A stretch of 22,019 nt of DNA from a virus (taxonomy: Duplodnaviria > Heunggongvirae > Uroviricota > Caudoviricetes). The stretch lies in IMG/VR virus record IMGVR_UViG_2585427746_000008, one strand, 5' to 3'. The position numbers were made by a program, and so were the translations under genes. Below are positions 1 through 11,425 of this stretch, one piece after another. Under the pieces are notes generated by a model. It saw only the letters and a list, made by a program, of their open reading frames with translations. It made no database searches and had not been told where the DNA came from. How positions within the stretch are numbered: position 1 is the stretch's first letter; every line of letters starts with the position of its first letter.

Positions 1-984
1 ATGACGGCGAAAACAGCACCGAAAGTCACGCTGTGGGAGTTCTTCCAGCAGTTAGGCAAAACCTTCATGTTACCCGTGGCATTATTGTCGTTCTGCGGCA
101 TTATGCTCGGCATTGGTAGTTCTCTTAGCAGCCATGATGTCATAACCCTGATCCCGGTCCTGGGCAACCCCGTGTTGCAGGCTATCTTTACCTGGATGAG
201 TAAGATTGGCTCGTTTGCTTTTAGTTTCCTGCCTGTCATGTTCTGTATCGCCATCCCGCTGGGCCTGGCACGCGAAAATAAAGGCGTAGCGGCATTCGCT
301 GGCTTCATCGGTTATGCGGTAATGAACCTCGCGGTAAACTTCTGGTTGACCAATAAAGGCATTCTGCCAACCACGGATGCCGCGGTTCTGAAAGCCAATA
401 ACATCCAGAGCATTCTTGGGATCCAGTCGATCGATACCGGGATCCTCGGTGCGGTGATCGCCGGTATTATCGTCTGGATGCTGCATGAGCGTTTCCATAA
501 TATCCGCCTGCCGGATGCGCTGGCATTCTTCGGCGGTACGCGCTTCGTACCAATTATCTCCTCGCTGGTGATGGGCCTTGTCGGCCTGGTGATTCCATTA
601 GTCTGGCCGATTTTCGCCATGGGTATTAGCGGCTTGGGCCATATGATAAACAGCGCGGGTGATTTCGGACCGATGCTGTTTGGTACCGGTGAACGTCTGC
701 TGTTGCCGTTTGGTCTGCATCACATTCTGGTGGCATTAATTCGCTTTACCGACGCAGGCGGCACGCAGGAAGTCTGCGGTCAAACCGTCAGCGGCGCACT
801 GACCATCTTCCAGGCGCAATTGAGTTGCCCGACCACTCACGGTTTTTCTGAAAGCGCCACGCGTTTCCTTTCGCAAGGTAAAATGCCTGCGTTTCTCGGC
901 GGTCTGTGTAACCAGGTAAATCATTTGATACCGACAAGGGTTTTAGTGAAAGGAGGTGAAATCACCTGTAAGATACTGAAATAA
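1..984 (+). CDS. malX: PTS sugar transporter EIIC domain (MalX-like), N-terminal ~302 codons only; frame runs into phage DNA after ~nt 906 and stops at 984 (disrupted gene)
   Basis: ORF starts at nt 1 with MTAKTAPKVTLWEFFQQLGKTFMLPVALLSFCGIMLGIGSS, a polytopic membrane protein typical of glucose/maltose-family EIIC. From memory this matches E. coli MalX. The last ~25 codons (CNQVNHLIPTRVLVKGGEITCKILK) are unrelated and coincide with the start of phage-end repeats. Confidence 0.6.
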   Translation: MTAKTAPKVTLWEFFQQLGKTFMLPVALLSFCGIMLGIGSSLSSHDVITLIPVLGNPVLQAIFTWMSKIGSFAFSFLPVMFCIAIPLGLARENKGVAAFAGFIGYAVMNLAVNFWLTNKGILPTTDAAVLKANNIQSILGIQSIDTGILGAVIAGIIVWMLHERFHNIRLPDALAFFGGTRFVPIISSLVMGLVGLVIPLVWPIFAMGISGLGHMINSAGDFGPMLFGTGERLLLPFGLHHILVALIRFTDAGGTQEVCGQTVSGALTIFQAQLSCPTTHGFSESATRFLSQGKMPAFLGGLCNQVNHLIPTRVLVKGGEITCKILK

Positions 985-1085
985 AACAGGTGATCGATGA
1001 TTCTGGAGGTTGTTTAGTTTTGATACTGATTAAATAAAATCCGGTATAAAATTAAGGTATCGGCAACAAATTTGATACTGCACAT
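905..1085 (+). repeat. attL-like terminal region with repeated putative transposase-binding sites
   Basis: Direct copies of TTTGATAC(C/T)G at 924-933, 1019-1028 and 1071-1080, a near copy at 971-978, and inverted imperfect copies (cggtataaa 1042-1050, ggtatcgg 1056-1063). Also a 9-bp perfect inverted repeat atcacctgt/acaggtgat at 961-969 and 985-993. Confidence 0.6.
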
Positions 1086-1211
1086 ACTGCTTATGGACGT
1101 TTTTAAAAGTACTTAAAATGTCTTTTATGCTAAAAAGTTTATATCAATATCGATCTGGTCACAAATCAAGTTGAAAGTGCTCGCTAAGTGCATGGCCTGG
1201 GCTTCATGGGG

Positions 1212-1730
1212 TTACGCTTTGGCTTCTTTATGGGTTAAATTGAAATGATGATCCTTGGTTTCATCTCCCTCGAAAATCTCTCTAACCTTTTGATCTGATA
1301 AATTATTAAGGCTCAATGCTGCCAGGCGTCGAATACCTGTTAAAGCGATCAACTCTTGATTCTCTTGATTGCAGAATTCCAGCAATTTTTCTACCCCTTT
1401 CCTTCTCAAGGTGTAAATAACTAATTCTTGCTCTTCTTGGCTCAAAGTGTCGATGAGTTCGAGCAACTCGCTATTGCCACCGTTCTTTTGAGGGGGCTGG
1501 TGTTTTATTTCTGCACTACCTGTAATGATGGAAACAACATGTGCAGGTAAGTCGCTTAAACGGTAGGCAAATGCTCTCCCTCTGATACCAGGTGTAGTTA
1601 CCGAACGTTTTTCCCATCCTTCATTTTTTGCTCGTTTATGAAGCCCAGCCAGAGATGAAGGAAGACCTCCAACCCCCAACAAGTCACTGGCAAGGATCCA
1701 TTCTTGGTCAAGGATCATATCAAACTCCAT
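1212..1730 (-). CDS. Mu c-like repressor with N-terminal winged-helix DNA-binding domain
   Basis: Leftward ORF directly inside the left end, as in Mu. The motif LPSSLAGLHKRAKNEGWEKR is nearly repeated at the N-terminus of the transposase (LPSSLAGLHKKAKREAWKTR), the arrangement known for Mu repressor and MuA. The real start may be the second Met at 1718, which has a GGAG upstream. Confidence 0.75.
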   Translation of the reverse strand: MEFDMILDQEWILASDLLGVGGLPSSLAGLHKRAKNEGWEKRSVTTPGIRGRAFAYRLSDLPAHVVSIITGSAEIKHQPPQKNGGNSELLELIDTLSQEEQELVIYTLRRKGVEKLLEFCNQENQELIALTGIRRLAALSLNNLSDQKVREIFEGDETKDHHFNLTHKEAKA

Positions 1731-1946
1731 TTGATATTAACTTTTGTTTATATCTTTATGTGGTTTATTTCAAAAATAACTCAATAAAAAACAAATAGAT
1801 ACAGAGCAAATTTAAAAATTTGAAATTAACCAGTTGATATTTACTAAGTTAATATCTAACATATCAAACATACACTAGTGAGTAACTCAATAGAGTAGCA
1901 CACATGAGTAATAAAGTTTGCCATAGAAAGTACACAGGGGGCCATT
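1731..1946. promoter_or_regulatory. AT-rich early operator/promoter region between divergent repressor and ner
   Basis: Very AT-rich 216-bp spacer. Perfect palindrome CAAATTTAAAAATTTG at 1807-1822. Candidate rightward sigma70 promoter TTGATA-N17-TAACAT at 1834-1862, bracketed by inverted repeat TTGATAT (1834-1840) and ATATCAA (1861-1867). Confidence 0.5.
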
Positions 1947-2192
1947 GTGAGTCTTATTGAAGATTGGTCTTCCGCCGATATAAAGGCAGCCTTAGAAAAA
2001 CGCGATACCAATTTGTCACGTTTATCAAGGGAAAATAATTTGCAGCCTAGGACTTTGGGTAATGCTTTGCGAGTTCCCTACCCTAAAGGTGAAAAGATAA
2101 TTGCTAGGGCTATAGGTGTAGAGCCACAGGTTATTTGGCCTACTAGATATGAACGACGTGCGCGGAGGAAATATGTGGGTTGCAATGACTGA
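1947..2192 (+). CDS. ner: Ner-like DNA-binding protein (Ner/Nlp family)
   Basis: 81-aa ORF with GTG start as first gene of the early operon. Resembles Mu Ner in size, position and motifs (LSRLSREN..., PKGEKIIA, PQVIWPTRY versus Mu PKGEQIIA, PEVIWPSRY). Confidence 0.8.
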   Translation: MSLIEDWSSADIKAALEKRDTNLSRLSRENNLQPRTLGNALRVPYPKGEKIIARAIGVEPQVIWPTRYERRARRKYVGCND

Positions 2193-4257
2193 ATTGATTT
2201 CATTCAGTGACCTACCTAGTTCTTTGGCAGGTCTGCACAAAAAAGCAAAGAGGGAAGCGTGGAAAACGCGGCTAAAACCAGGGGTAAAAGGGAAAGTTTT
2301 AGAGTGTGAAATAGGGGCTTTGCCTTTAACTGTTCAGCAGGCAGTACGCGAACGCTATGCCCTGCAACTGATGACGCAAAAAGCCGATGAATCACCGGCT
2401 CCGGTAGTGACAAAGGCCAGGCGCTCACCTGCCGTGGTTGATGCGGTGGAGGCATATCGCGGATCACCACAACTGATGCTCGAACGCCTCAATGCCCTGA
2501 CTGAAAACCAGCGCCAGGTGGCTGATGCACGAATCGCGATCGTCAGCGAAGTTCTGAAAGTCGCGCAACAACCTGGTTTCAGCTGTGCGAAGGCTATCCG
2601 GTTTATCGTTGACAACCTGGCACGTTCGCAACTGGACGAGCGCATTGTGGCAATGGTTGAGACGGCGAACGCCAAAAAGGGAAACAGCCGTGCGTTGAGT
2701 GAAATCACGCTGAAACGCTGGATTGCAGCCTTTAACAAGGCGCAGAACGCCGCTGAACGCCTGCTTTTGCTGGCACCTGGTAAGCGCCAGGAAATAAAAG
2801 CCGAAGATATTAACTGGCTGCCCGAATTTCTGGCGCAGTATCGCCAGTCAAACGGCCGACCAATGACCGAGGCTTACGAGGATTTTGTCGCTGAATGGCA
2901 GCACCGGCACGCTGATGAGCCTTATATGCTCGATATCATGCCGTCTTACGACACCATCCGCCGCGCAATGAAGAAACTGCCGGAAGTGGTGAAACAAAAA
3001 GGCCGGGTGACCGGCAGTGAATACCGCCAGCTTGAGGGATTCACGCGCCGCGACTGGTCCAGAATGCCGGTGAATTATGTCTGGATTGGTGACGGTCACG
3101 GCATGAAGCTGAAATGCAGGCACCCGGTTCACGGGCGGCCATTTGCACCGGAAGTGACCTTTGTTATCGACGGTGGCACGCGCTTTGTGGTGGGCTGGAG
3201 CCTTGACCTGGCTGAAAATGTTTTCGCCGTAGCCGGTGCCATACAGTACGGTATTCGTAATCACGGCAAACCGTTTCTGTATTACTCGGATAACGGTTCC
3301 GGGGAAACCGCCGACATCCTGGATAAGGAAGTTGTGGGGATCCTGCCGCGACTGGGGATTAATCACCCAACCGGGATTGCCGGTAACCCGCAGGGACGGG
3401 GCATTATCGAACGGCTTAACCGCACGTTACCGATGCGTATAGCCCGTAAATACCGCACCTATTTCGGGAAAGGTGCAGATCGCGAGACGTTACGCAAAAC
3501 CAACCGCGATTTACGCTCGGCATTTACCGCCCTGCAACAGGGCAAACGGCTGAACGCCCGGCAACAGTCAGCGATGCGTGATTTACCGTCCTGGTCTGAA
3601 CTGATTGATGCCATTCGTGATGGCGTTGAGTGGTACAACAACCGGCCGCACGATGAATTACCCATGAAGCCGAACGGGAAGCATTACAGCCCGGCGGAGT
3701 TCAGAAAAAAACGCCTGGCAGAAGAGGACACGGAAATTGAATGGCTGTCCGATGTTGAGCTGCGGGATATGTTCCGGCCAATGGTGGAACGCCCTGTAAG
3801 ACGCTGTGAAATACGCTGGCTGAATAATATTTACTACGCGCCCGAGCTGAGTGATGAGCATGGCCGCAAGGTGCTTATCAGCTATGACATTCATGATGCC
3901 GAACGAATTACCGTACGTCGCCCGGATGGCAGCGTGATTTGCGAGGCGGTATGGGACGGCAATAAACGCGAAGCCTTCCCGGTCAGCGCGGAATACTACA
4001 AACAGCAGCAACGCCTTAAAGGTATGCGTAAACGCGCAGAGGAAAAAATCCGTGATGCCGAGGATGAGGTTGTCAACGTGCTGGAGCACAAGCCGCAGGA
4101 GCCCTGGCTGGAAAACATATACCGCCCTGTGGGTAATACGGTGACCGTTCAGCAACCTGCCGTTGATGATGAGCCTGATGAAGAATACGAGCGTAATTTC
4201 CAGCGGGGATTGCAGTTGCTCGAAGCGAAATTAAAAGAAAATGACCCTCTGGCCTGA
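2173..4257 (+). CDS. DDE transposase (MuA-like)
   Basis: Roughly 695 aa. N-terminal winged-helix motif shared with the repressor. Catalytic-core-like motifs VWIGDGHG, YSDNGSGE and GRGIIERLNRTL are consistent with a D-D-E triad. GGAGG lies 4 nt upstream of ATG 2173; the gene overlaps the ner 3' end. Confidence 0.9.
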   Translation: MWVAMTELISFSDLPSSLAGLHKKAKREAWKTRLKPGVKGKVLECEIGALPLTVQQAVRERYALQLMTQKADESPAPVVTKARRSPAVVDAVEAYRGSPQLMLERLNALTENQRQVADARIAIVSEVLKVAQQPGFSCAKAIRFIVDNLARSQLDERIVAMVETANAKKGNSRALSEITLKRWIAAFNKAQNAAERLLLLAPGKRQEIKAEDINWLPEFLAQYRQSNGRPMTEAYEDFVAEWQHRHADEPYMLDIMPSYDTIRRAMKKLPEVVKQKGRVTGSEYRQLEGFTRRDWSRMPVNYVWIGDGHGMKLKCRHPVHGRPFAPEVTFVIDGGTRFVVGWSLDLAENVFAVAGAIQYGIRNHGKPFLYYSDNGSGETADILDKEVVGILPRLGINHPTGIAGNPQGRGIIERLNRTLPMRIARKYRTYFGKGADRETLRKTNRDLRSAFTALQQGKRLNARQQSAMRDLPSWSELIDAIRDGVEWYNNRPHDELPMKPNGKHYSPAEFRKKRLAEEDTEIEWLSDVELRDMFRPMVERPVRRCEIRWLNNIYYAPELSDEHGRKVLISYDIHDAERITVRRPDGSVICEAVWDGNKREAFPVSAEYYKQQQRLKGMRKRAEEKIRDAEDEVVNVLEHKPQEPWLENIYRPVGNTVTVQQPAVDDEPDEEYERNFQRGLQLLEAKLKENDPLA

Positions 4258-4334
4258 AATAAAAAAATAACCCGAGCGGCGACTCAGGTTATTTGATTAA
4301 ACTCGGAGAACTGTCTCAACGCGAGGTGAATAAT

Positions 4335-5267
4335 ATGACCGATATAAACGATGTAATCAAGACCATTGATGAACTTATTGATGGCGGCGTGCTGACGCAG
4401 TATGCCATCGCCAGAGAGGCGGGAATTTCCGACGGCACATTATCGGCTTTCCGCAAGGGGAAATATAAAGGCGATAACGCCGCTGTGGCTGCTTCCCTGC
4501 GCTCCTGGTATGAGAACTGGAATAAACAAAGCGCACTGCCGGAACCGCCGCAGTTTGTGGAAACTCAGACAGTCCAGGAGCTGCGCGCACTGTTTCAGGC
4601 GGTTCGCCTGATGGGCTGTATTAACGTTATTGTGGGCGTACCGGGTGTGGGTAAAACGGCCACTGCCCGTAATTACTGCCAGGAGCAACCAAACACCTGG
4701 ATGATCACCCTGTCACCCGCGCACTCCAGCGTCACGGAGTGTCTGCTGGAGCTGGCCGATGCGCTGGGGATTGATTACACCCGCGCGAACAAAGGGGCAT
4801 TATCCCGCGCCATCCGCCGTCGCCTGATGGGAACGCGTGGACTGGTGATTGTGGATGAGGCGGATCATCTTGGTATTGACGGTCTGGAGCAACTCCGGGC
4901 AATTCAGGACGCCACGGGGATCGGGATGGTGCTTATTGGTAACCCGCGCGGATTGTTTAAAGGTGGACGCCGCGCCTTTGATGATTTATCGCGCCTGTTC
5001 AGCCGTCTTGCCCGTACAAAACAACTTCGCAAGGCCAAAAAGGCGGATGTGCTGGCCATTGCCATGGCGTGGGGGATCAGTGGTGAGGCTGAGCTGGCCG
5101 TCATGCAGGCTATCGCTGAAAAGCCGGGAGCGTTACGCGTTCTGACACATACGCTTAACCAGGCGTGGCTCACCGCCAGCGGTGAAGGCGCGGCGCTGAC
5201 AGAAAAACATATTAATGCGGCCTTTAAAGAGGTTTATACCAACCCTGAATTACTCTCACAGGTGTGA
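4335..5267 (+). CDS. Transposition helper ATPase (MuB-like AAA+)
   Basis: Walker A motif GVPGVGKT and Walker B motif VIVDEADHL. Lies immediately downstream of the transposase. GAGGTGA RBS precedes ATG 4335; the ORF track start at 4293 lacks an RBS. Confidence 0.85.
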   Translation: MTDINDVIKTIDELIDGGVLTQYAIAREAGISDGTLSAFRKGKYKGDNAAVAASLRSWYENWNKQSALPEPPQFVETQTVQELRALFQAVRLMGCINVIVGVPGVGKTATARNYCQEQPNTWMITLSPAHSSVTECLLELADALGIDYTRANKGALSRAIRRRLMGTRGLVIVDEADHLGIDGLEQLRAIQDATGIGMVLIGNPRGLFKGGRRAFDDLSRLFSRLARTKQLRKAKKADVLAIAMAWGISGEAELAVMQAIAEKPGALRVLTHTLNQAWLTASGEGAALTEKHINAAFKEVYTNPELLSQV

Positions 5268-5269
5268 TT

Positions 5270-5491
5270 ATGGCGGTATTTAATATTCCTGATATTTACG
5301 GACGCTTTTACCTGGTTAATTTCGATAACGTGAAGGTGATTTCACTGGCCGAAAATAAAGAATGTGGCGATTTACTTTTTGAATTTAATGACCGCACACG
5401 AATGGTGATATCTGCCGGACTTGATCGCGAAGGTGCGACAGAAGTTTACAGCGGAATATGCCGTTCTGTTGGTGCGAAACAAGTCAGCTAA
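5270..5491 (+). CDS. hypothetical small early protein
   Basis: ORF with AGGTG RBS 7 nt upstream of ATG 5270; start is tightly packed against the B stop codon. Confidence 0.5.
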   Translation: MAVFNIPDIYGRFYLVNFDNVKVISLAENKECGDLLFEFNDRTRMVISAGLDREGATEVYSGICRSVGAKQVS

Positions 5492-5503
5492 ATGAGGTGT
5501 TAT

Positions 5504-5758
5504 ATGAATATGCAATCCTGCGGTAACAAAATGAATTTATTCGACTCCCTGAACAGCGCGCGCCGTCTGACCGAACTTGCCGGTGCGGTACTGGAACGCA
5601 GTAAGCGCTATCCGCAACGTTTTGCACTGAAAACCACGCCGCCGGTAGGCAACGTGCAGGGAACCGGTGAAATTGAAATCACCATACAGACCAACGGCCT
5701 GCGCCGCCGTGTGAAGGCCACCCGCATCAGCGGCTGCACGGTTTACTGGGAGGTGTGA
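5504..5758 (+). CDS. hypothetical small early protein
   Basis: ORF with AGGTG RBS 4 nt upstream of ATG 5504; same strand and tight packing as neighbours. Confidence 0.5.
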   Translation: MNMQSCGNKMNLFDSLNSARRLTELAGAVLERSKRYPQRFALKTTPPVGNVQGTGEIEITIQTNGLRRRVKATRISGCTVYWEV

Positions 5759-5759
5759 G

Positions 5760-5918
5760 GTGAAAAAAAATCTCATTGCATGGGCGTGGTCGAGTGGTCT
5801 TATTGAGTTTGGTTACGTCCTGCCGGAAGGTGCATTGCCGATAGTTGCCGGAAAGCCTGCCACGGTACGGCATGTGATTGAGGTTATGGCGCGTCATGGA
5901 CGTGATGAACAGGAGTAG
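5760..5918 (+). CDS. hypothetical small protein (52 codons, GTG start), possibly the N-terminal part of a longer gene interrupted by an in-frame TAG
   Basis: Not in the ORF track because it is under 60 aa. GTG at 5760 is preceded by AGGTGTGAGG. The same frame stays open for 40 more codons after TAG 5916-5918 and ends in a TGA that overlaps the next gene's ATG. Confidence 0.3.
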   Translation: MKKNLIAWAWSSGLIEFGYVLPEGALPIVAGKPATVRHVIEVMARHGRDEQE

Positions 5919-6037
5919 TTACTGGTTCCGGGGATACCGGAAGCGGTGACGGAGGAAGAAGCCTTTAATGCCATGATTCGGTTCTGCCGTGAGGTCAGAC
6001 GCCGGGTCAGTTATCCAAACAGAACGAGGACCAGAGG

Positions 6038-6310
6038 ATGAGTAAAGTCGTACGCATTATTTTCGAATACAAGGAGCACGTTATCCATAAAAACCCTGAT
6101 GGAACAGTGCGCATGGGGGTAAGTCTGGACATACGTTCAACCGGGATAAAGCAGAAAGGTGATGGACCCGCCATGATTTTTGGGGTGGTTATGCTCGCGG
6201 AAAGCAGAGACTTTGCTGAACTTGTAGCAATGAAAGCCAGTGCGCTCATGAAAGATATGAGCATGCGTTCCGGGGTTATTAAAGGTAATGAATTTAATCA
6301 GCAGGGGTAA
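6038..6310 (+). CDS. hypothetical early protein
   Basis: 90-aa ORF beginning MSKVVRIIFEY, in the early operon; its start overlaps the preceding TGA. Confidence 0.55.
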   Translation: MSKVVRIIFEYKEHVIHKNPDGTVRMGVSLDIRSTGIKQKGDGPAMIFGVVMLAESRDFAELVAMKASALMKDMSMRSGVIKGNEFNQQG

Positions 6311-6314
6311 TTCC

Positions 6315-6608
6315 ATGAGCAAAGTACGCGTTATTTTTGAATTTAATCATGTTTCGCATGACGAAAAGTTGGCAGGCAATGACTGTGTTGAAGTGCATGA
6401 AAAGATTGGAGTGGATGTGAAAACAGAACGTGATACGGATAACAGCCCGACGTCACTCTGTGACGTTTATGCAAGTATTCTCCAGTATCACAGTCCTGCA
6501 ATTATTCAGTTTCTCTCAGCGGAATTTCAGGCATCTGTACAGGCTTTTGGGGCGGATGCCATCATTAAACGCCACCGCGTGCATAAAGCATCAGGCACAC
6601 TGCAATAA
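6315..6608 (+). CDS. hypothetical early protein, paralogue-like to the preceding gene
   Basis: Begins MSKVRVIFEF, like the upstream neighbour's MSKVVRIIFEY. ATG 6315 follows the upstream stop closely. Confidence 0.55.
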   Translation: MSKVRVIFEFNHVSHDEKLAGNDCVEVHEKIGVDVKTERDTDNSPTSLCDVYASILQYHSPAIIQFLSAEFQASVQAFGADAIIKRHRVHKASGTLQ

Positions 6609-6619
6609 GGAAAAACAAA

Positions 6620-7150
6620 ATGGCTAAACGCGTTACAAAATTAAAGGCCGCAGCCGAGGCGGCACCGCAGACCCGGGAAGAAGTCAGTCGCGATATCCGT
6701 CGCTTTGGGGATATGCAGCGAGAGGCGCTGCGCCTGGAAACGGCAATGAATGATGAAGTGGCAGAAATCACCGCCCGTTATACGCCGCAGATTGAAAACC
6801 TTAAAAAAGAAATCAAAGTGCTTTTTAAGGGGATTCATGACTGGTGCAAAACCAACCGCGATGAGCTGACGAACGGTGGCGAAACCAAAACTGCCAATCT
6901 GACAACCGGAACGGTGTCATGGCGGCTGGAAAAGCCATCATGCAGCGTCAGCCGTGATGTGGAAGGTGTGATTGAAATGCTGCGCCGTATGGGGCTTGAG
7001 CGTTTCATCCGCACGAAAGAGGAAGTGAATAAGCAAGCCATTCTGGCGGAACCGGATGCGGTAAAGGGTATTGCCGGTATTAAGGTGAATAAAGGCGCTG
7101 AAAGTTTTTCTGTCGAGCCTTTTGAACAGGACGCCGGACTGAATAAATAA
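6620..7150 (+). CDS. gam: Gam-like host-nuclease inhibitor (Mu Gam / Ku-like DNA end-binding)
   Basis: 176 aa with blocks recalled from Mu Gam: MAK...K..AA, LRLETAMNDEVAEIT, NRDELTNGG, TANLTTGTVSWR, LERFIRTKEEVNK. AAGGAAA RBS upstream. Confidence 0.85.
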   Translation: MAKRVTKLKAAAEAAPQTREEVSRDIRRFGDMQREALRLETAMNDEVAEITARYTPQIENLKKEIKVLFKGIHDWCKTNRDELTNGGETKTANLTTGTVSWRLEKPSCSVSRDVEGVIEMLRRMGLERFIRTKEEVNKQAILAEPDAVKGIAGIKVNKGAESFSVEPFEQDAGLNK

Positions 7151-7247
7151 CACCGCATTAAATCTTTAGATATCACATTGTTTTAATTATGGCGCTCGCG
7201 TCAGAGGGCTGCTTGCGCCTGTAAACTGAAAATAAGGAACAGGAAAT

Positions 7248-7790
7248 ATGGCATATTTTTATTTCAAATTAGACAGAGCACAGACAAATAAATATTTCAC
7301 CAAATATCAACAGACTGTTTTACCGCTACGCAACAGTATTCTTCGGACGTTACTGAAAAATACAGGCGCTGCCGGATTGCGCTTAAAGCCGTTCGCCATG
7401 GACAGAATCAGTGAGTTTTATTTTGCCGGTGCTCTGCCTGCGGGCTGGCGTAAGCGCGATGATGTGGCTTTTATCGGTAGCGGACAGTGCTTTATAGCCA
7501 GACCTGATGAGTCATGCCCTGAAGGACCGGCGATTGCCACAATGGTTGAAGCCGCTGAACGCGATTTAAGAAAGCGACCTGATTTCCTTGTCTGGCTCTG
7601 TGAAAAGCTGGGGGTAATGAGAATGCCCTCCATGTTTAACACAGACTCCTGGTGGACCCCGTCTCTCTCCCGTGATGCCCTGTGCGTGGTGTTTAAAGTA
7701 GGTGCTTATGGCAGGGAAATAAACGGGCGTATTCCTGAAGAATGTCAGGAAATTAAACATTCTGAATATGTGGCGCTGACGGAGGAATAA
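7248..7790 (+). CDS. hypothetical protein, first gene of a translationally coupled four-gene cassette
   Basis: 180-aa ORF with AGGAACAGGAAAT RBS, following a 97-bp gap after gam. No family recognised. Confidence 0.55.
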   Translation: MAYFYFKLDRAQTNKYFTKYQQTVLPLRNSILRTLLKNTGAAGLRLKPFAMDRISEFYFAGALPAGWRKRDDVAFIGSGQCFIARPDESCPEGPAIATMVEAAERDLRKRPDFLVWLCEKLGVMRMPSMFNTDSWWTPSLSRDALCVVFKVGAYGREINGRIPEECQEIKHSEYVALTEE

Positions 7791-7793
7791 TTC

Positions 7794-8327
7794 ATGATAG
7801 ATGCAAAAGTGCTTGAAGGGGTTAAAAACTGGCTGAGCATTTACGGGCGTCTGACCTGCGGCGTTCTGGCTCAAAGAATGAATATGCCGCCATCCTCGAT
7901 GGTCTATTTTCTGCGTGATGCGGTTGATGCCGGTGTGCTGACAGAATGTAACGGTTTTTATGATATTCCGCGTCCCCGCCCGGTACAGCCGGTTCGTCGC
8001 AAATGCCGCCAGGAGTCTGTGGCTGATGATGTTCAGTGGTGCAGCTTCAGAAAATCCCTGCCGTGGGTTGAAGGGCATGATATTCCGTCGATGGCGTGGG
8101 AATTTGCGCAGGGCGTTCTGACCTGTGAAACCGTTTATGTGGTGGCTGAAGTTGATGAGCAGGCAATGAAAGAAGGTGTGCCCCAGTTTGTGATGGCGTA
8201 TATCGACATTCGCCTGGGGACCATTATCTGCGGTTTAAGCGGCTGGAATATCACCGAACATGTTCTGCGTTACCTGATTGTTGACCGGACGGCAGCGCCT
8301 GCCGGGATATCTGCGGAGGTGGCGTAA
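7794..8327 (+). CDS. hypothetical protein
   Basis: 177-aa ORF with GGAGG RBS, starting 4 nt after the upstream stop. Confidence 0.55.
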   Translation: MIDAKVLEGVKNWLSIYGRLTCGVLAQRMNMPPSSMVYFLRDAVDAGVLTECNGFYDIPRPRPVQPVRRKCRQESVADDVQWCSFRKSLPWVEGHDIPSMAWEFAQGVLTCETVYVVAEVDEQAMKEGVPQFVMAYIDIRLGTIICGLSGWNITEHVLRYLIVDRTAAPAGISAEVA

Positions 8328-8842
8328 TGTTCTTTAAAACATCGAACCCTTCCGCGCTGGCTGCGTGGCAAAAATATCAGCAGGACTGCCAGCAAGTTAA
8401 GGATGAGGCAAAACGCCTTGAGGCCGTGCTGAATGTTGAGTGCCGGTCGGTATTTGTATCCGGTATCAGCGGTTTTTGTTTTAAGGGGCTGCGTTTTACG
8501 AATGACAAATATCCTTTTCATCGTGATTTATGGCGAAAACCGACTGCGTCGAATGGCTGGAGCTGCACGCCGCGCACATCGCGCATTCCCAAAGCCCTGC
8601 GCACTGCCTCTGACGAACTGAACAGTCTGTGGCGTGAATATTCGCCCGTCACGTATGCCAGAACCGATGCCCTGTTGTTCTGGCTGGGCATTGATTTCTC
8701 AGCAATCCTGTATGGCCCTGTGGAGTGGTTCTGCGTTGACGATGTGATTTATCTTCAGTGCGGTGTAAAACCCGCAAATCAGAAAATGACCGAAATTCTG
8801 TCTGATGAGTTTTATGCTGCTGAAAAGCGAGTCAGGGGGTGA
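8327..8842 (+). CDS. hypothetical protein
   Basis: 171-aa ORF; its ATG overlaps the upstream TAA (GTAATG) and is preceded by GGAGGTG. Confidence 0.55.
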   Translation: MFFKTSNPSALAAWQKYQQDCQQVKDEAKRLEAVLNVECRSVFVSGISGFCFKGLRFTNDKYPFHRDLWRKPTASNGWSCTPRTSRIPKALRTASDELNSLWREYSPVTYARTDALLFWLGIDFSAILYGPVEWFCVDDVIYLQCGVKPANQKMTEILSDEFYAAEKRVRG

Positions 8843-8845
8843 TGC

Positions 8846-9397
8846 ATGATGAAATTACAACCCATGGGGCGAAAAGGTCGTGCACCTGCTCATGTCCGCC
8901 CGTGGACACCTGAAGAAGATGCGCTGCTGATTGCGCTTTATTCCTCCACCCCGGTTAAGGATATTGCCGCCAGAATAAAAAGAAGTGTCTGGGCCGTATA
9001 TAACCGGACTGGCGTATTGCGCAGTACATACCCGGAGTTGCTGAAATATAAACGACCGCGATTTACACCTGATGAAGATAAATTTATCCGAAAAAATGCC
9101 CGGACAATGACCTGCCAGCAAATGGGGGATTATCTCGGACGTAATAAAGACTCTGTCAGGTGCCGCGCAGGAATGATTGGTGCCGGATTAACAAAGTGCG
9201 GTGAGTTACGCCCCGGCACACGTATATCTGATGAGGATGTTCGTCTTATACGTGCACTACGGGATTCCGATTACCCTCGCCGTCTGTCATTCCGGGAAAT
9301 TGGCGAAAAGTTTGGCATATCTGAACATTCTGCTCACGCTGTTTATTACCGTCGACGGACCGCCGAGGACGCTGTATTACGGGAGTTAACGCCATGA
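8846..9397 (+). CDS. putative DNA-binding protein with three tandem helix-turn-helix-like repeats (Myb/SANT-like)
   Basis: Three spaced repeats: WTPEEDALLIALY...IAARIKRSVWAVYNR, FTPDEDKFIRKN...MGDYLGRNKDSVRCR, ISDEDVRLIRALR...IGEKFGISEHSAHAVYYRR. Strong AGGGGGTGA RBS. Confidence 0.5.
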   Translation: MMKLQPMGRKGRAPAHVRPWTPEEDALLIALYSSTPVKDIAARIKRSVWAVYNRTGVLRSTYPELLKYKRPRFTPDEDKFIRKNARTMTCQQMGDYLGRNKDSVRCRAGMIGAGLTKCGELRPGTRISDEDVRLIRALRDSDYPRRLSFREIGEKFGISEHSAHAVYYRRRTAEDAVLRELTP

Positions 9398-9579
9398 TAA
9401 AGAGACTTGTATTTTTCGCAATTATCGTTCCAGTGTGGGGGACTGGTTTTATATTTGCGATTACAGGAAACCTGTCCATTATGCCTGACATTTGGTTCTT
9501 TATCAGGATGTCGCTCTTCCTGTTTATTATGGATTTTCTCATCGGTATATACATTCGTATTTCCGGGAGGCGTAAATGA
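9394..9579 (+). CDS. small hydrophobic membrane protein (61 aa)
   Basis: Almost entirely hydrophobic (LVFFAIIVPVWGTGFIFAITG and FFIRMSLFLFIMDFLIGIYI), consistent with two transmembrane helices. Lies in a low-GC segment; the start overlaps the upstream stop. Confidence 0.45.
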   Translation: MIKRLVFFAIIVPVWGTGFIFAITGNLSIMPDIWFFIRMSLFLFIMDFLIGIYIRISGRRK

Positions 9580-9950
9580 GAAAAATCACGTCCTTGTCAG
9601 AGTTACAGGAGATGAATATGAGCATTGAATTAAGAACGTCTTATGAATATCGTAAAATTCTTATCGCCGGAGGTATGAAACCGGAAGATGCGGAAAAAAT
9701 CGTTTCTTTTATGGATAAAGAATGTGACAAACGGGATGTGCCAGAAATTATTATGGATGACATGATTCTGGATTCAGCCGTAGCGTTAAGTCCGTTATGG
9801 ATTGTGCATTCTCTTGCAGAAATTGCCAGAGGCACCGATAAAATGGCTGCTGTTGCTGCCCTTCAGACGCTTAATGAAATGCGTATATCTCCACGCCCGA
9901 CATTAATACATATGATTCTGTCCAGCATGGAGGATAAAGCTAATGAATAG
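9576..9950 (+). CDS. hypothetical protein (124 aa) in low-GC island
   Basis: GGGAGG RBS upstream; start overlaps the upstream stop (ATGA). Confidence 0.5.
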   Translation: MRKITSLSELQEMNMSIELRTSYEYRKILIAGGMKPEDAEKIVSFMDKECDKRDVPEIIMDDMILDSAVALSPLWIVHSLAEIARGTDKMAAVAALQTLNEMRISPRPTLIHMILSSMEDKANE

Positions 9951-10140
9951 TCTACCCGCTGGATGGGCGCGGCCATTGATGGCTAAGAAGCATCATTTTT
10001 TTAAAACAGGTGAAAATATCAGTATATGTGGGCGGTGGTTATATCTGGCTCATAATCGCGAGCCGGATACATTTGAAAGCCCTGATGACTGTGCCGAATG
10101 CCGCAGAAGACTGAATAAGGAGAAAGATAATGGACAGTAG
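9943..10140 (+). CDS. small Cys-containing protein, possible zinc-ribbon (65 aa)
   Basis: GGAGG RBS upstream. A Cys in ...SICGRW... and a later CAEC pair, about 20 residues apart, suggest a metal-binding knuckle. Confidence 0.4.
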   Translation: MNSLPAGWARPLMAKKHHFFKTGENISICGRWLYLAHNREPDTFESPDDCAECRRRLNKEKDNGQ

Positions 10141-10426
10141 TTCGCAGTTGTTCTGGTGTTTATATATCACATCGTTTTTCGGTGCATTCGTCATTACACG
10201 ATGGCTGTGCCGGAAAGTTATCAGTATTTTTCATAAAAAATACCTGATTGGGCTGGCGGCGGCTTCTCTGATTAATGCACTTGCCAGATATCATAAGGGG
10301 GAATACTACTCAAGAATAAAAACTGTTGATGGTTTTAATATTTTTGTGATTCCTCCGGAGTATCGGGTTCAGCTCGATCGGGAAAATAAAATCTATCATA
10401 TCAGCAGGAGTGTTGATACAGCATGA
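10130..10426 (+). CDS. small membrane-anchored protein (98 aa)
   Basis: AAGGAGA RBS upstream. N-terminal hydrophobic helix LFWCLYITSFFGAFVITRWL. Low-GC sequence. Confidence 0.5.
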   Translation: MDSSSQLFWCLYITSFFGAFVITRWLCRKVISIFHKKYLIGLAAASLINALARYHKGEYYSRIKTVDGFNIFVIPPEYRVQLDRENKIYHISRSVDTA

Positions 10427-10932
10427 GAGGGAAACTGATATCCGCCATTCATGTGGCAAAGCGCGAGCTTGCCCTGGATGATGAAACCTATACATTCGTG
10501 CTGCTGGCAGCCACCGGCAAATCCAGTTGCCGGGATATGTCACCGGATGAGTTATCCCGCGTGCTGGATGTTTTCAAAAAACGCGGTTTTAAAGTGCGTC
10601 AGAAACCGGTTAACCGGGCCTTAAAACCGGGTACGGTGACCGCCAAAATTCGCGCCATCTGGAAGGTAATGCACCGGCAGGGCTTTATCGCTGATGGCGG
10701 GGAAACGGCCCTTAACCGCTGGGTGAAGTCGCAGACGGCCGCGCAGAACGGTGGCGAAGGTGTGGCTAACTGGCAGTGGCTGGAGCAACACCCCGCACTG
10801 GCCTCGGATGTGCTGGAGCGTCTCAAACGCTGGCACCGTCGCAAGATGCTGGATGTGCTGGGGATGTCAGCGCGTACAGTGATGAGTTATGAGCGCGTTT
10901 GCAGGCTGTATGAAGAATCCTCCCCTTTTTAA
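10423..10932 (+). CDS. gemA: GemA-like protein (Mu gp16 family)
   Basis: N-terminus LISAIHVAKRELALDDETY...ATGKSSCRDMSPDEL is characteristic of the Mu gp16/GemA family as I recall it. It is the last gene before the early terminator, as in Mu. Confidence 0.7.
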   Translation: MRGKLISAIHVAKRELALDDETYTFVLLAATGKSSCRDMSPDELSRVLDVFKKRGFKVRQKPVNRALKPGTVTAKIRAIWKVMHRQGFIADGGETALNRWVKSQTAAQNGGEGVANWQWLEQHPALASDVLERLKRWHRRKMLDVLGMSARTVMSYERVCRLYEESSPF

Positions 10933-10936
10933 CCCC

Positions 10937-10968
10937 AAATCCCGCCACAGCGCGGGATTTTTATTTTA
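10937..10968 (+). terminator. Rho-independent terminator ending the early operon
   Basis: 9-bp stem AAATCCCGC / GCGGGATTT (10937-10945 and 10952-10960) with a 6-nt loop, followed by TTATTTT. Confidence 0.7.
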
Positions 10969-11002: not shown

Positions 11003-11425
11003 ATGGCTGAAACACAGATGAGCATGTTTGGTGACAGCGAACAGCTGCACGCGCTGATTGACCGTCTGGATGATATTCCTGATGATGAGCTGAAAAAGAA
11101 CTGGCCCGGCACGCTGCGGGACCTGGTTGATGTGATCAGTGCTGAACTGCACCGTCAGGGGATTGAACCTGCTCAGGCGGGAATGCTTGCCCGTAAGGTT
11201 GCAGCCGCACAGGCCGGGTACATGGGCGGGCGTGGTTATTATCTCCCGGTCGGTGAATCCCTTTTCACCGAACTGCGCAATAATGAAATTTTTTCCCGCT
11301 GGAGCCAGGGCGAAAAAATTGAAACCCTGCGCCGCCACTACCAGATGTCAGAGACGCAGATTTACTCCGTTATCCGCAACCAGCGTCGCCTGCATCAGGA
11401 ACGCACGCAGCCACGGCTTTTCTGA
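11003..11425 (+). CDS. Mor/C-family transcriptional activator
   Basis: 140 aa with a C-terminal HTH (ETLRRHYQMSETQIYSVIRNQRRL) resembling Mu Mor/C, including the conserved YLP..G motif (GRGYYLPVGESL). Located after the early terminator and before the lysis genes; GGAGG RBS. Confidence 0.75.
   Translation: MAETQMSMFGDSEQLHALIDRLDDIPDDELKKNWPGTLRDLVDVISAELHRQGIEPAQAGMLARKVAAAQAGYMGGRGYYLPVGESLFTELRNNEIFSRWSQGEKIETLRRHYQMSETQIYSVIRNQRRLHQERTQPRLF

Follow-up and report, generated by a model that had tools for sequence, protein, structure and literature searches.

A probable distal cassette slot in the early operon of a Mu-like, Sp18-type Escherichia coli prophage

A moron, in the sense of Juhala and Hendrix, is an autonomous transcription unit that brings a promoter and a terminator of its own and is often expressed from the prophage. 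The Mu-like phages of Pseudomonas carry 'regions of genomic plasticity', which contain accessory ORFs of 34–100 codons and are found mainly in the left arm, some of them at GC valleys (Cazares et al., 2014, PMC4378225). Transcription of the pE operon of Fc02, accessory genes of the plasticity regions included, occurs only after induction (PMC9936078). Within E. coli, an intact Mu-like prophage, Sp18, has been described from the O157:H7 strain Sakai (PMC2669165).

We analysed a 22,019-nucleotide stretch of a Caudoviricetes genome (IMG/VR record IMGVR_UViG_2585427746_000008; hereafter the window), in which a first-pass annotation had singled out positions 9394–10426 as a low-GC, compositionally foreign insert of four small genes that resembled a moron.

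Composition, setting and coding capacity

The gene order of the prophage (c, ner, A, B, ..., gam, gp11, ..., block, gemA, mor, lys) is that of Mu, with the block on the same strand as the flanking early genes, between the transposition and gam genes on one side and gemA and mor on the other. Its GC content is 0.409, compared with 0.513 for the early operon (2149–9393) and 0.565 for the late region (10427 to the end), and values this low occur in just 1.9% of all 1033-bp windows across the prophage, nearly all of these low windows lying in the immunity region around c and ner. The GC profile bears out a low-GC block before gemA, but the sharpness ascribed to the drop in composition holds at one edge only. 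On the right the change is abrupt, with third-codon-position GC (GC3) rising from 0.40 to 0.63 at gemA (10423–10932, plus strand; GC 0.559, GC3 0.629), a gp16-family gene (Pfam GemA, E 1.2e-29) that is conserved and closes the slot on this side. On the left GC3 shows no sharp edge, being 0.42 already in the preceding gene. This gene (8846–9397, plus strand; GC3 0.424) encodes a SANT/Myb-like, D5-like DNA-binding protein of 183 amino acids (phrog_323, E 2.5e-53, and a weak Pfam Myb match). Its alleles in three related prophages (L005, L001 and L006) show ~77% nucleotide identity, and the flanking genes show 91–95%. We place the left edge of the slot at the SANT gene, which we read as lying within the low-GC3, allelically variable zone.

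The four ORFs of the first-pass annotation are also annotated as genes by PGAP (NCBI) in near-identical prophages, and hundreds of contigs preserve their reading frames intact; the hundreds of database copies are without exception named 'hypothetical'. The strong ribosome-binding sites claimed for them were found in full, with a good Shine-Dalgarno sequence at every gene: GGGAG upstream of 9394 (spacing 8 nt), GGGAGG upstream of 9576 (5 nt), AGGAG upstream of 9618 (6 nt), GGAGGA upstream of 9943 (8 nt) and AAGGAG upstream of 10130 (7 nt). Start and stop codons overlap by 4 nt between the SANT gene and gene 1, by 8 nt between genes 2 and 3, by 11 nt between genes 3 and 4 and by 4 nt between gene 4 and gemA. 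The proposed overlapping junctions therefore stand at these four places, but that between genes 1 and 2 is doubtful, because the upstream extension of gene 2 to 9576 is specific to one architecture and the conserved core of this gene starts at 9618 (see below). The dN/dS values of genes 1–3 lie between 0.05 and 0.33, and we regard all four genes as real and under purifying selection.

Inside the block we found 5 promoter-like sites where 3.4 were expected, in a scan that covered the sigma-70 consensus only and in AT-rich DNA, which can hide weak or non-canonical promoters. Terminator-like sites numbered 5 against 2.8 expected, none of them strong. The lone strong terminator-like signal nearby lies outside the block, between gemA and the Mor-family gene, where scanning and folding identified a 9-bp hairpin followed by a U-run (10937–10960, plus strand; T-run in the DNA; −13.5 kcal/mol, z = −3.96). 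Rfam, repeat and tRNA searches returned nothing within the block.

When the four proteins, along with the alternative proteins that occupy the slot in relatives, were scanned against Pfam, NCBIfam, PADLOC and PHROGs, the only matches were to PHROG families that carry no function. Not one PADLOC defence model matched the four block proteins or four alternative slot proteins at E ≤ 0.1, and single-protein sequence searches of the PDB gave no meaningful match. Nor did the literature yield gene-level data on the block genes, the genes of Sp18 or Mu gp13–gp15.

The four gene products

Gene 1 (9394–9579, plus strand) encodes a basic 61-amino-acid peptide with a pI of 11.5. Its Kyte-Doolittle profile has two peaks above 1.6, at approximately residues 5–24 and 33–53, in agreement with the two transmembrane (TM) helices initially proposed, and there are charged residues inside the second. 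The positive charge of both termini suggests a hairpin whose two ends lie in the cytoplasm. Gene 1 has dN/dS values of 0.19–0.33 (versus L005 and L001). It matched nothing in PHROG, Pfam or PADLOC, and its sole match in phage databases was a Mu-like insert in the Stx2c phage LC727881.

Gene 2 had been taken to encode 124 amino acids, a length that does not survive comparison with its homologues, all of which begin MSIELR and share a conserved core of 110 amino acids that starts at 9618 (9618–9950, plus strand). As a conserved start, 9576 was ruled out by these MSIELR starts, by the PGAP call of 110 amino acids, by the limit of homology (in this region, similarity to other architectures, the type B prophages, begins at position 9605 of the window) and by the alignment with L001. 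The additional 14 codons form an in-frame leader (9576–9617, plus strand) that is confined to the architecture of the window. Its first 11 nt align with the start of a 75-amino-acid gene that follows gene 1 in L001, which makes the leader a probable deletion scar, with or without translation into protein.

The product of gene 2 is acidic and belongs to phrog_1988 (E 1.9e-43), the match spanning residues 15–123 of the long ORF. It is 34% identical to SfMu_14, the product of SfMu ORF14 (E 1e-15), a homologue that stands alone in SfMu, without the other block genes; Mu and D108 reportedly lack ORF14 (PMC4406740). The gene 2 protein had no match in Pfam. With dN/dS values of 0.13–0.16, the protein was modelled by AlphaFold2 as all-helical, with six helices, at a pLDDT of 53 that is too low for reliable fold comparison. 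A profile of the family matched designed helical-repeat proteins in the PDB at E 3e-8, a weak lead that could mirror the idealised helix composition of those proteins and that we judged probably compositional. One relative of gene 2 carries the NCBI name HEAT repeat.

Gene 3 (9943–10140, plus strand; phrog_2358, E 4.7e-34) encodes 65 amino acids, of which three are cysteines. The protein is not Cys-rich, but its cysteines, pointed out in the first-pass annotation, are invariant, as is His18. Alignment of the phrog_2358 family showed Gly7, Trp8, His18, Cys29, Cys50 and Cys53 to be invariant, and the His and three Cys residues did not vary among 36 diverse members. We predict a zinc-ribbon-like mini-domain with a His-Cys3 metal-binding site, although gene 3 did not match the Pfam zinc-ribbon models. 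Its dN/dS is 0.05–0.08.

The family is very widespread, comprising 977 representative clusters at E ≤ 1e-3 in an exhaustive search. Homologues occur in lytic Pseudomonas Pbunaviruses, in Klebsiella and Pantoea phages and in the early gene arrays of non-Mu elements; in unrelated phages, strictly lytic ones included, gene 3 is found on its own. We counted the presence of the family in strictly lytic phages toward a lytic role. When longer relatives were scanned with Pfam for fused domains, one DUF551 match and one sub-threshold match were the only results. The family profile also hit BPTI in the PDB (E 0.002; hhalign probability 48%). Membership in the Kunitz/BPTI family was rejected, as just 2 of the 6 Cys positions are common to both and 4 are missing; the two invariant gene 3 cysteines in question align with a disulfide pair of BPTI.

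Gene 4 (10130–10426, plus strand; phrog_17269, E 5.5e-65) encodes a 98-amino-acid protein with an N-terminal hydrophobic helix. The membrane anchor previously proposed is plausible but not certain: the hydrophobic segment comprises only 17 residues (7–23; Kyte-Doolittle 1.85), and membrane insertion is marginal on simple hydrophobicity scales. The C-terminal part is predicted to be a small beta domain that diverges fast between alleles: AlphaFold2 gave a helix at residues 3–54 and four strands, with a pLDDT of 67 (too low for reliable fold comparison), and a Foldseek search of viral structures with this model returned no match at E ≤ 0.001. Relatives are few (6 among 5.8 billion proteins) and come from E. 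coli Mu-like prophages only, the full window-type allele being present in only 62 genomes.

Two alleles of gene 4 are known to us, 51% identical overall but nearly invariant over the first ~29–36 residues, such that pN between them is 0.07 in the N-terminal part versus 0.41 in the C-terminal part. A recombination junction at codon 36 was ruled out because saturation of synonymous sites extends to the N-terminal part, which argues that the alleles are old throughout and that selection has kept the anchor (dN/dS ~0.05 despite the saturation).

Distribution among related prophages

Comparison with related Mu-like prophages, which the first-pass annotation had proposed as a check, revealed varying gene sets, with at least five slot architectures in E. 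coli. The window shares with L005 an arrangement of genes for 61, 110, 65 and 98 amino acids. L006 and L007 have 103-116-110-65-98, and L001 has 61-75-103-116-111-65-98; L008 has 109-116-102 and a minus-strand DUF2513 gene. In L014 and L015 all four block genes are absent and the slot contains genes for 110 and 95 amino acids and a minus-strand gene for 79, including a homologue of Mu gp14 (49% identity). L014 nevertheless has the same annotated protein accessions for Mor and lysozyme as the prophage of AST198, which is near-identical to that of the window. Most of the alternative cassettes are AT-rich too.

Copy counts differ accordingly from gene to gene: gemA is found at 271 places across 231 E. 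coli genomes, genes 3–4 at 247 and gene 1 at 119 of the ~271 prophage copies. Gene 1, gene 2 and genes 3–4 are distributed independently, and the single foreign four-gene insert that had been proposed gives way to a mosaic of cassettes, in which we consider the four genes separate modules. Because natural variants without them exist, they appear to be dispensable for the phage backbone. Genes 2–4, however, are present in ~90% of the closest prophage lineage, so their role there could be lineage-specific and more central than the word 'accessory' implies.

Role of the block and its nearest parallels

We favor, with a probability of roughly 60%, the reading that the block is the distal, hypervariable cassette slot of a Mu-type semi-essential early region in an Sp18-type E. 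coli prophage, occupied by early-lytic, non-essential host-interaction genes. Small accessory genes would be exchanged singly between the SANT/Myb-like gene and gemA, by recombination with other phages. Because the genes are co-oriented and joined by start/stop overlaps, and because transcription signals do not exceed chance, the early promoter would drive them, only upon induction or infection, and the repressor would silence them in the lysogen. By analogy, their products would act early in lytic growth as non-essential factors of host interaction. Genes 2 and 3 probably encode small soluble proteins that bind host or defence proteins. The products of genes 1 and 4 probably sit in the inner membrane and alter the envelope while the phage replicates, a change that might, for example, exclude competing phages or neutralise a defence associated with the membrane. 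In gene 4, the combination of a conserved anchor with a fast-diverging C terminus would be in keeping with an arms race against some variable partner.

Host killing or the timing of lysis, in which gene 1 and perhaps gene 4 would encode kil-like or holin-like toxins causing early arrest or permeabilisation, is an unlikely role for the block. Small membrane toxins and holins are of similar size and topology to gene 1, whose product is a very hydrophobic, basic hairpin of 61 amino acids with charged residues in its second TM helix, and Mu encodes Kil in its early region. Nevertheless, PHROGs, Pfam and NCBIfam yielded no similarity to any family of holins, toxins or Kil proteins; the endolysin, the spanin genes and DUF2730/gp25 make up a lysis cassette downstream, in the late region; and more than half of the related prophages lack gene 1.

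We think it quite unlikely that the block is a true moron, that is, a lysogenic-conversion cassette expressed in the repressed prophage from a weak promoter of its own, with membrane proteins that confer superinfection exclusion or abortive infection. What the block has in common with the morons of lambdoid phages is that its genes are extra, present in some relatives only, and atypical in base composition; two of its proteins are moreover predicted membrane proteins, two promoter-like sites on the plus strand (at 9630 and 9724) match 9 of 12 positions, and Pseudomonas Mu-like phages do encode exclusion genes (PMC9936078). The exclusion genes of Fc02, however, adjoin the repressor and have their own promoter, outside the pE operon (PMC9936078), whereas the block, unlike lambdoid morons, is embedded in the early operon through start and stop codons that overlap with flanking genes on the same strand. 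A promoter and terminator of its own were not found by the consensus scan, such sites being at chance level; no PADLOC model matched; and strictly lytic phages, too, carry members of the gene 3 family. The label of moron-like insert thus captures the distinct composition and accessory nature of the genes, but neither autonomous transcription nor a single insertion.

We give little credence to a more specific proposal of lytic-phase counter-defence or exclusion, in which gene 4 would act as a membrane-tethered protein, its C-terminal domain diversifying against a variable host defence or competing phages and gene 1 serving as its membrane partner, or gene 3 as a zinc-stabilised, Kunitz-like inhibitor of a host enzyme such as a protease. 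The idea of a Kunitz-like inhibitor comes solely from the weak profile resemblance to BPTI. Imm of T4 is a small early protein with two TM helices that blocks DNA injection by superinfecting phages. Gene 1 is of comparable size, likewise has two predicted TM helices and is expected to be expressed early in lytic growth, an analogy only, with no sequence similarity detected between the two.

Finally, decaying remnants or chance frames in an AT-rich spacer are a highly improbable account of the ORFs: the uniformly 'hypothetical' database copies, their want of functional annotation and the low-confidence structure models would fit it, but dN/dS (0.05–0.33 for genes 1–3, ~0.05 for the gene 4 anchor), the Shine-Dalgarno sequences, the frames intact in hundreds of contigs and the invariant metal-ligand residues of a family of 977 clusters all argue against it.

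The hypervariable-slot reading has its closest structural counterparts in Mu and SfMu, whose gp13–gp15 occupy the same position as the last early-operon genes before gemA and are likewise small and uncharacterised. Their GC is 0.44–0.49 versus 0.53–0.55 in the flanks, so a lower-GC slot is common to all, and because Mu and SfMu have it we see the low GC as a feature of the lineage rather than the mark of a recent insertion. Some of the content is related too, in that SfMu ORF14 is a homologue of gene 2 and the relative of Mu gp14 sits in the slot of a sister E. coli prophage; no similarity was detected between Mu gp14 and genes 1, 3 or 4. Mu gp13 is a Cys-rich protein of 60 amino acids whose matches to Pfam zinc-ribbon models are weak and fall below the cut-off. 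The slot of Mu includes a minus-strand gene (gp15), whereas that of the window has none. Prophages of O157:H7 (e.g. FRIK2455, L005) have the same four-gene architecture, with 87–96% nucleotide identity in genes 1–3, but differ in their gene 4 allele (51% protein identity) and divergent SANT allele.

As now known, the block holds nothing that would surprise a specialist. Its interest lies in the fact that slots of this kind have been productive sources of anti-defence genes, the anti-CRISPRs in Mu-like phages of Pseudomonas among them, and two of its genes stand out as candidates for functional screens: gene 3, for its very widespread family and invariant His-Cys3 residues, and gene 4, for its conserved anchor and fast-evolving C-terminal domain. 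The Pseudomonas plasticity regions belong to another host and lineage, with sequence homology to the block not shown, and some of them, unlike the block, have assigned functions (anti-CRISPR). Yet they and the block are alike in having small ORFs, mainly in the early arm and in some cases at a GC valley, that vary between otherwise syntenic genomes, and the position of the block in the early operon, on the same strand, follows the same pattern. In our preferred reading the block would add an E. coli/STEC example to the plasticity regions already known from transposable phages.

Prophage setting and composition of the block

The window is an Escherichia coli prophage of the Mu-like kind. It shares 99.9% identity, over the stretch queried, with one from strain AST198, and has relatives in the Sp18-type prophages of O157:H7. 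Its gene order is that of Mu: a minus-strand repressor gene is followed by ner, transposase A and B, several small genes, gam, a gp11-like gene and two genes without assigned function, then by a SANT/Myb-like (D5-like) DNA-binding gene (8846–9397, +), genes 1–4 of the block studied here, gemA (10423–10932, +), a Mor-family activator, lysozyme and the late genes. At the left end (1–1100), going by how PGAP annotates the near-identical locus of AST198, a truncated pitB and then a short yghD fragment abut the prophage end; these two genes may not normally be neighbours, which would point to host DNA having been deleted or rearranged next to the transposable prophage. PGAP also annotates a 'tRNA-OTHER' in AST198, corresponding to about 18888–18967 (−), between the minor head protein and virion morphogenesis genes; ARAGORN found no tRNA in the whole window, and Rfam was also without a match.

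The first-pass annotation had singled out 9394–10426 for a sharp drop in base composition across four short genes with strong ribosome-binding sites and overlapping junctions. The drop is real: GC is 0.409 in the block, compared with 0.513 in the remaining early operon and 0.565 downstream of the block, and 1.9% of equally long prophage windows have GC this low, nearly all of them in the immunity region. The four ORFs are present as described, each preceded by a good Shine-Dalgarno sequence, with start and stop codons overlapping at four of the five junctions. The right edge is sharp, third-position GC stepping from 0.40 to 0.63 at gemA. On the left, third-position GC is already 0.42 in the SANT/Myb-like gene, as low as in genes 1–4, and the variable zone therefore reaches further left than the proposed limit. 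Two deeply divergent alleles of that gene exist, sharing about 77% nucleotide identity in prophages whose neighbouring genes are 91–95% identical.

The ORFs are under purifying selection, which marks them as real genes. Measured against prophages 4–13% divergent, dN/dS was 0.19–0.33 for gene 1, about 0.15 for gene 2 and 0.05–0.08 for gene 3. Public databases already contain the exact sequences of all four proteins, three on >600 contigs each, under the name 'hypothetical protein' in every case, and no Pfam, NCBIfam or PADLOC model matched any of them.

Mosaic content between the SANT/Myb-like gene and gemA

Presence of the genes in related Mu-like prophages is variable, and the space between the SANT/Myb-like gene and gemA is a mosaic for which we found five architectures. 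Given as protein lengths in order, these are 61-110-65-98 aa (this window and O157:H7 FRIK2455); 103-116-110-65-98 aa (related loci L006 and L007); 61-75-103-116-111-65-98 aa (L001, the Mu-like insert of Stx2c phage LC727881); 109-116-102 aa and then a minus-strand DUF2513 gene (L008, from E. coli JKHS016); and 110-95 aa and then a 79-aa minus-strand gene (L014 and L015), which lacks all four genes and whose 95-aa protein is a homologue of Mu gp14 (49% identity). The 5,426 complete genomes of E. coli searched have the gemA backbone at 271 places, gene 3 together with the gene 4 anchor at 247 and gene 1 at 119, with the window-type allele of gene 4 in 62 genomes. Most alternative cassettes are also lower in GC (0.38–0.51), returning in every case to about 0.55 at gemA, and in Mu and SfMu gp13–gp15 occupy the same position with GC of 0.44–0.49 versus 0.53–0.55 in the flanks. 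The low-GC slot is thus a stable trait of the phage group, its content exchanged gene by gene. Accessory foreign DNA, as originally proposed, is supported, but not as a four-gene island inserted once and recently.

The minus-strand gene of L008 (4057–4467, −) encodes 136 aa, has GC of 0.39 and lies just upstream of gemA in place of genes 3 and 4; its DUF2513 match falls below the cut-off. With this opposite orientation it is a stronger candidate for a moron than any gene in the window. Minus-strand genes at this position are also seen in Mu (gp15) and in L014 and L015 (the 79-aa gene).

The four gene products

Gene 1 (9394–9579, +) encodes a basic, very hydrophobic 61-aa protein with two clear predicted transmembrane segments; the databases searched held no relatives beyond E. 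coli and Shigella Mu-like prophages. Gene 2 (9618–9950, +) encodes an acidic protein of family phrog_1988, modelled with low confidence as all-helical, that is 34% identical to SfMu ORF14, which the SfMu authors reported as not present in Mu or D108 (PMC4406740). The 124 aa first assigned to it include 14 additional codons (9576–9617) limited to this architecture; the conserved core is the 110 aa from 9618, which is also the PGAP length, with MSIELR as the N-terminus in all relatives, and sequence shared with other architectures starts at 9605, at gene 2's own ribosome-binding site. Because the first 11 nt of the leader (ATG and 8 nt) are the start of the 75-aa gene downstream of gene 1 in L001 (6235–6462), the window architecture looks like a derivative of a ~0.9 kb deletion, which would cover the 75-, 103- and 116-aa genes and fuse the start of the first in frame to gene 2.

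Gene 3 (9943–10140, +; 65 aa) belongs to a very large family, with 977 representative clusters in an exhaustive profile search. Pseudomonas Pbunaviruses, which are strictly lytic, encode relatives, as do Klebsiella and Pantoea phages, and others lie within early small-gene arrays of non-Mu-like elements; carriage by strictly lytic phages suggests that the family functions in lytic development. Gly7, Trp8, His18, Cys29, Cys50 and Cys53 are invariant, which suggests a His-Cys3 metal site. The family profile bears a weak likeness to BPTI/Kunitz (E 0.002 by hmmsearch against PDB; hhalign probability 48%), in which the disulfide pair Cys30–Cys51 of BPTI aligns with the invariant Cys29 and Cys50; the likeness may reflect either a zinc-stabilised analogue of this mini-fold or chance.

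Gene 4 (10130–10426, +; 98 aa) is restricted to E. coli Mu-like prophages and exists as two old alleles, represented by the window and by L005 of FRIK2455 (3289–3585). Between them, residues 1–36, with a hydrophobic stretch of 17 residues, are nearly unchanged (pN 0.07, dN/dS about 0.05, synonymous sites saturated), and the C-terminal 62 residues have pN of 0.41. C-terminal changes within a single allele are seven non-synonymous and two synonymous. The predicted fold (pLDDT 67) is a long helix and then four strands, for which a search of a viral structure library gave no match.

Expression and comparison with known systems

In a consensus scan, promoter-like and terminator-like sites inside the block occurred at the chance rate. 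The start of gene 1 overlaps the SANT/Myb-like stop, the gemA start overlaps the gene 4 stop, and the sole strong terminator-like hairpin lies after gemA. From these features we infer that genes 1–4 would be transcribed within the early transcript, upon induction or infection, and would be silent in the lysogen. The hairpin (10937–10960, +; 9 bp, −13.5 kcal/mol, z = −3.96, then UUUUUAUUUU) sits in the gap that separates gemA (stop at 10932) from mor (start at 11003), two genes that overlap in Mu. Early transcription may therefore stop or be attenuated ahead of the Mor-family activator, in which case the late-transcription switch would be controlled differently in this lineage.

The transcriptome of Fc02, a Mu-like Pseudomonas phage, offers a precedent for such induction-only expression: its pE operon, including plasticity-region accessory genes, is on only after induction, and its exclusion genes lie beside the repressor with their own promoter (PMC9936078). 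We propose that genes 1–4 are non-essential host-interaction factors that would serve take-over, counter-defence or competitor exclusion during the lytic cycle, with genes 1 and 4 acting at the inner membrane. For experimental work, the most promising of the four are genes 3 and 4.

The proposal that the block is a moron agrees with its variable presence and atypical composition but not with an autonomous transcription unit, so far as chance-level sites in a consensus scan can tell. The block fits both Mu's semi-essential early region and the 'regions of genomic plasticity' of Pseudomonas Mu-like phages, which consist of small accessory ORFs lying mostly in the left arm, some of them in GC valleys and some later proved to be anti-CRISPRs (PMC4378225). 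It is a further instance of this known type of region, with four uncharacterised genes.
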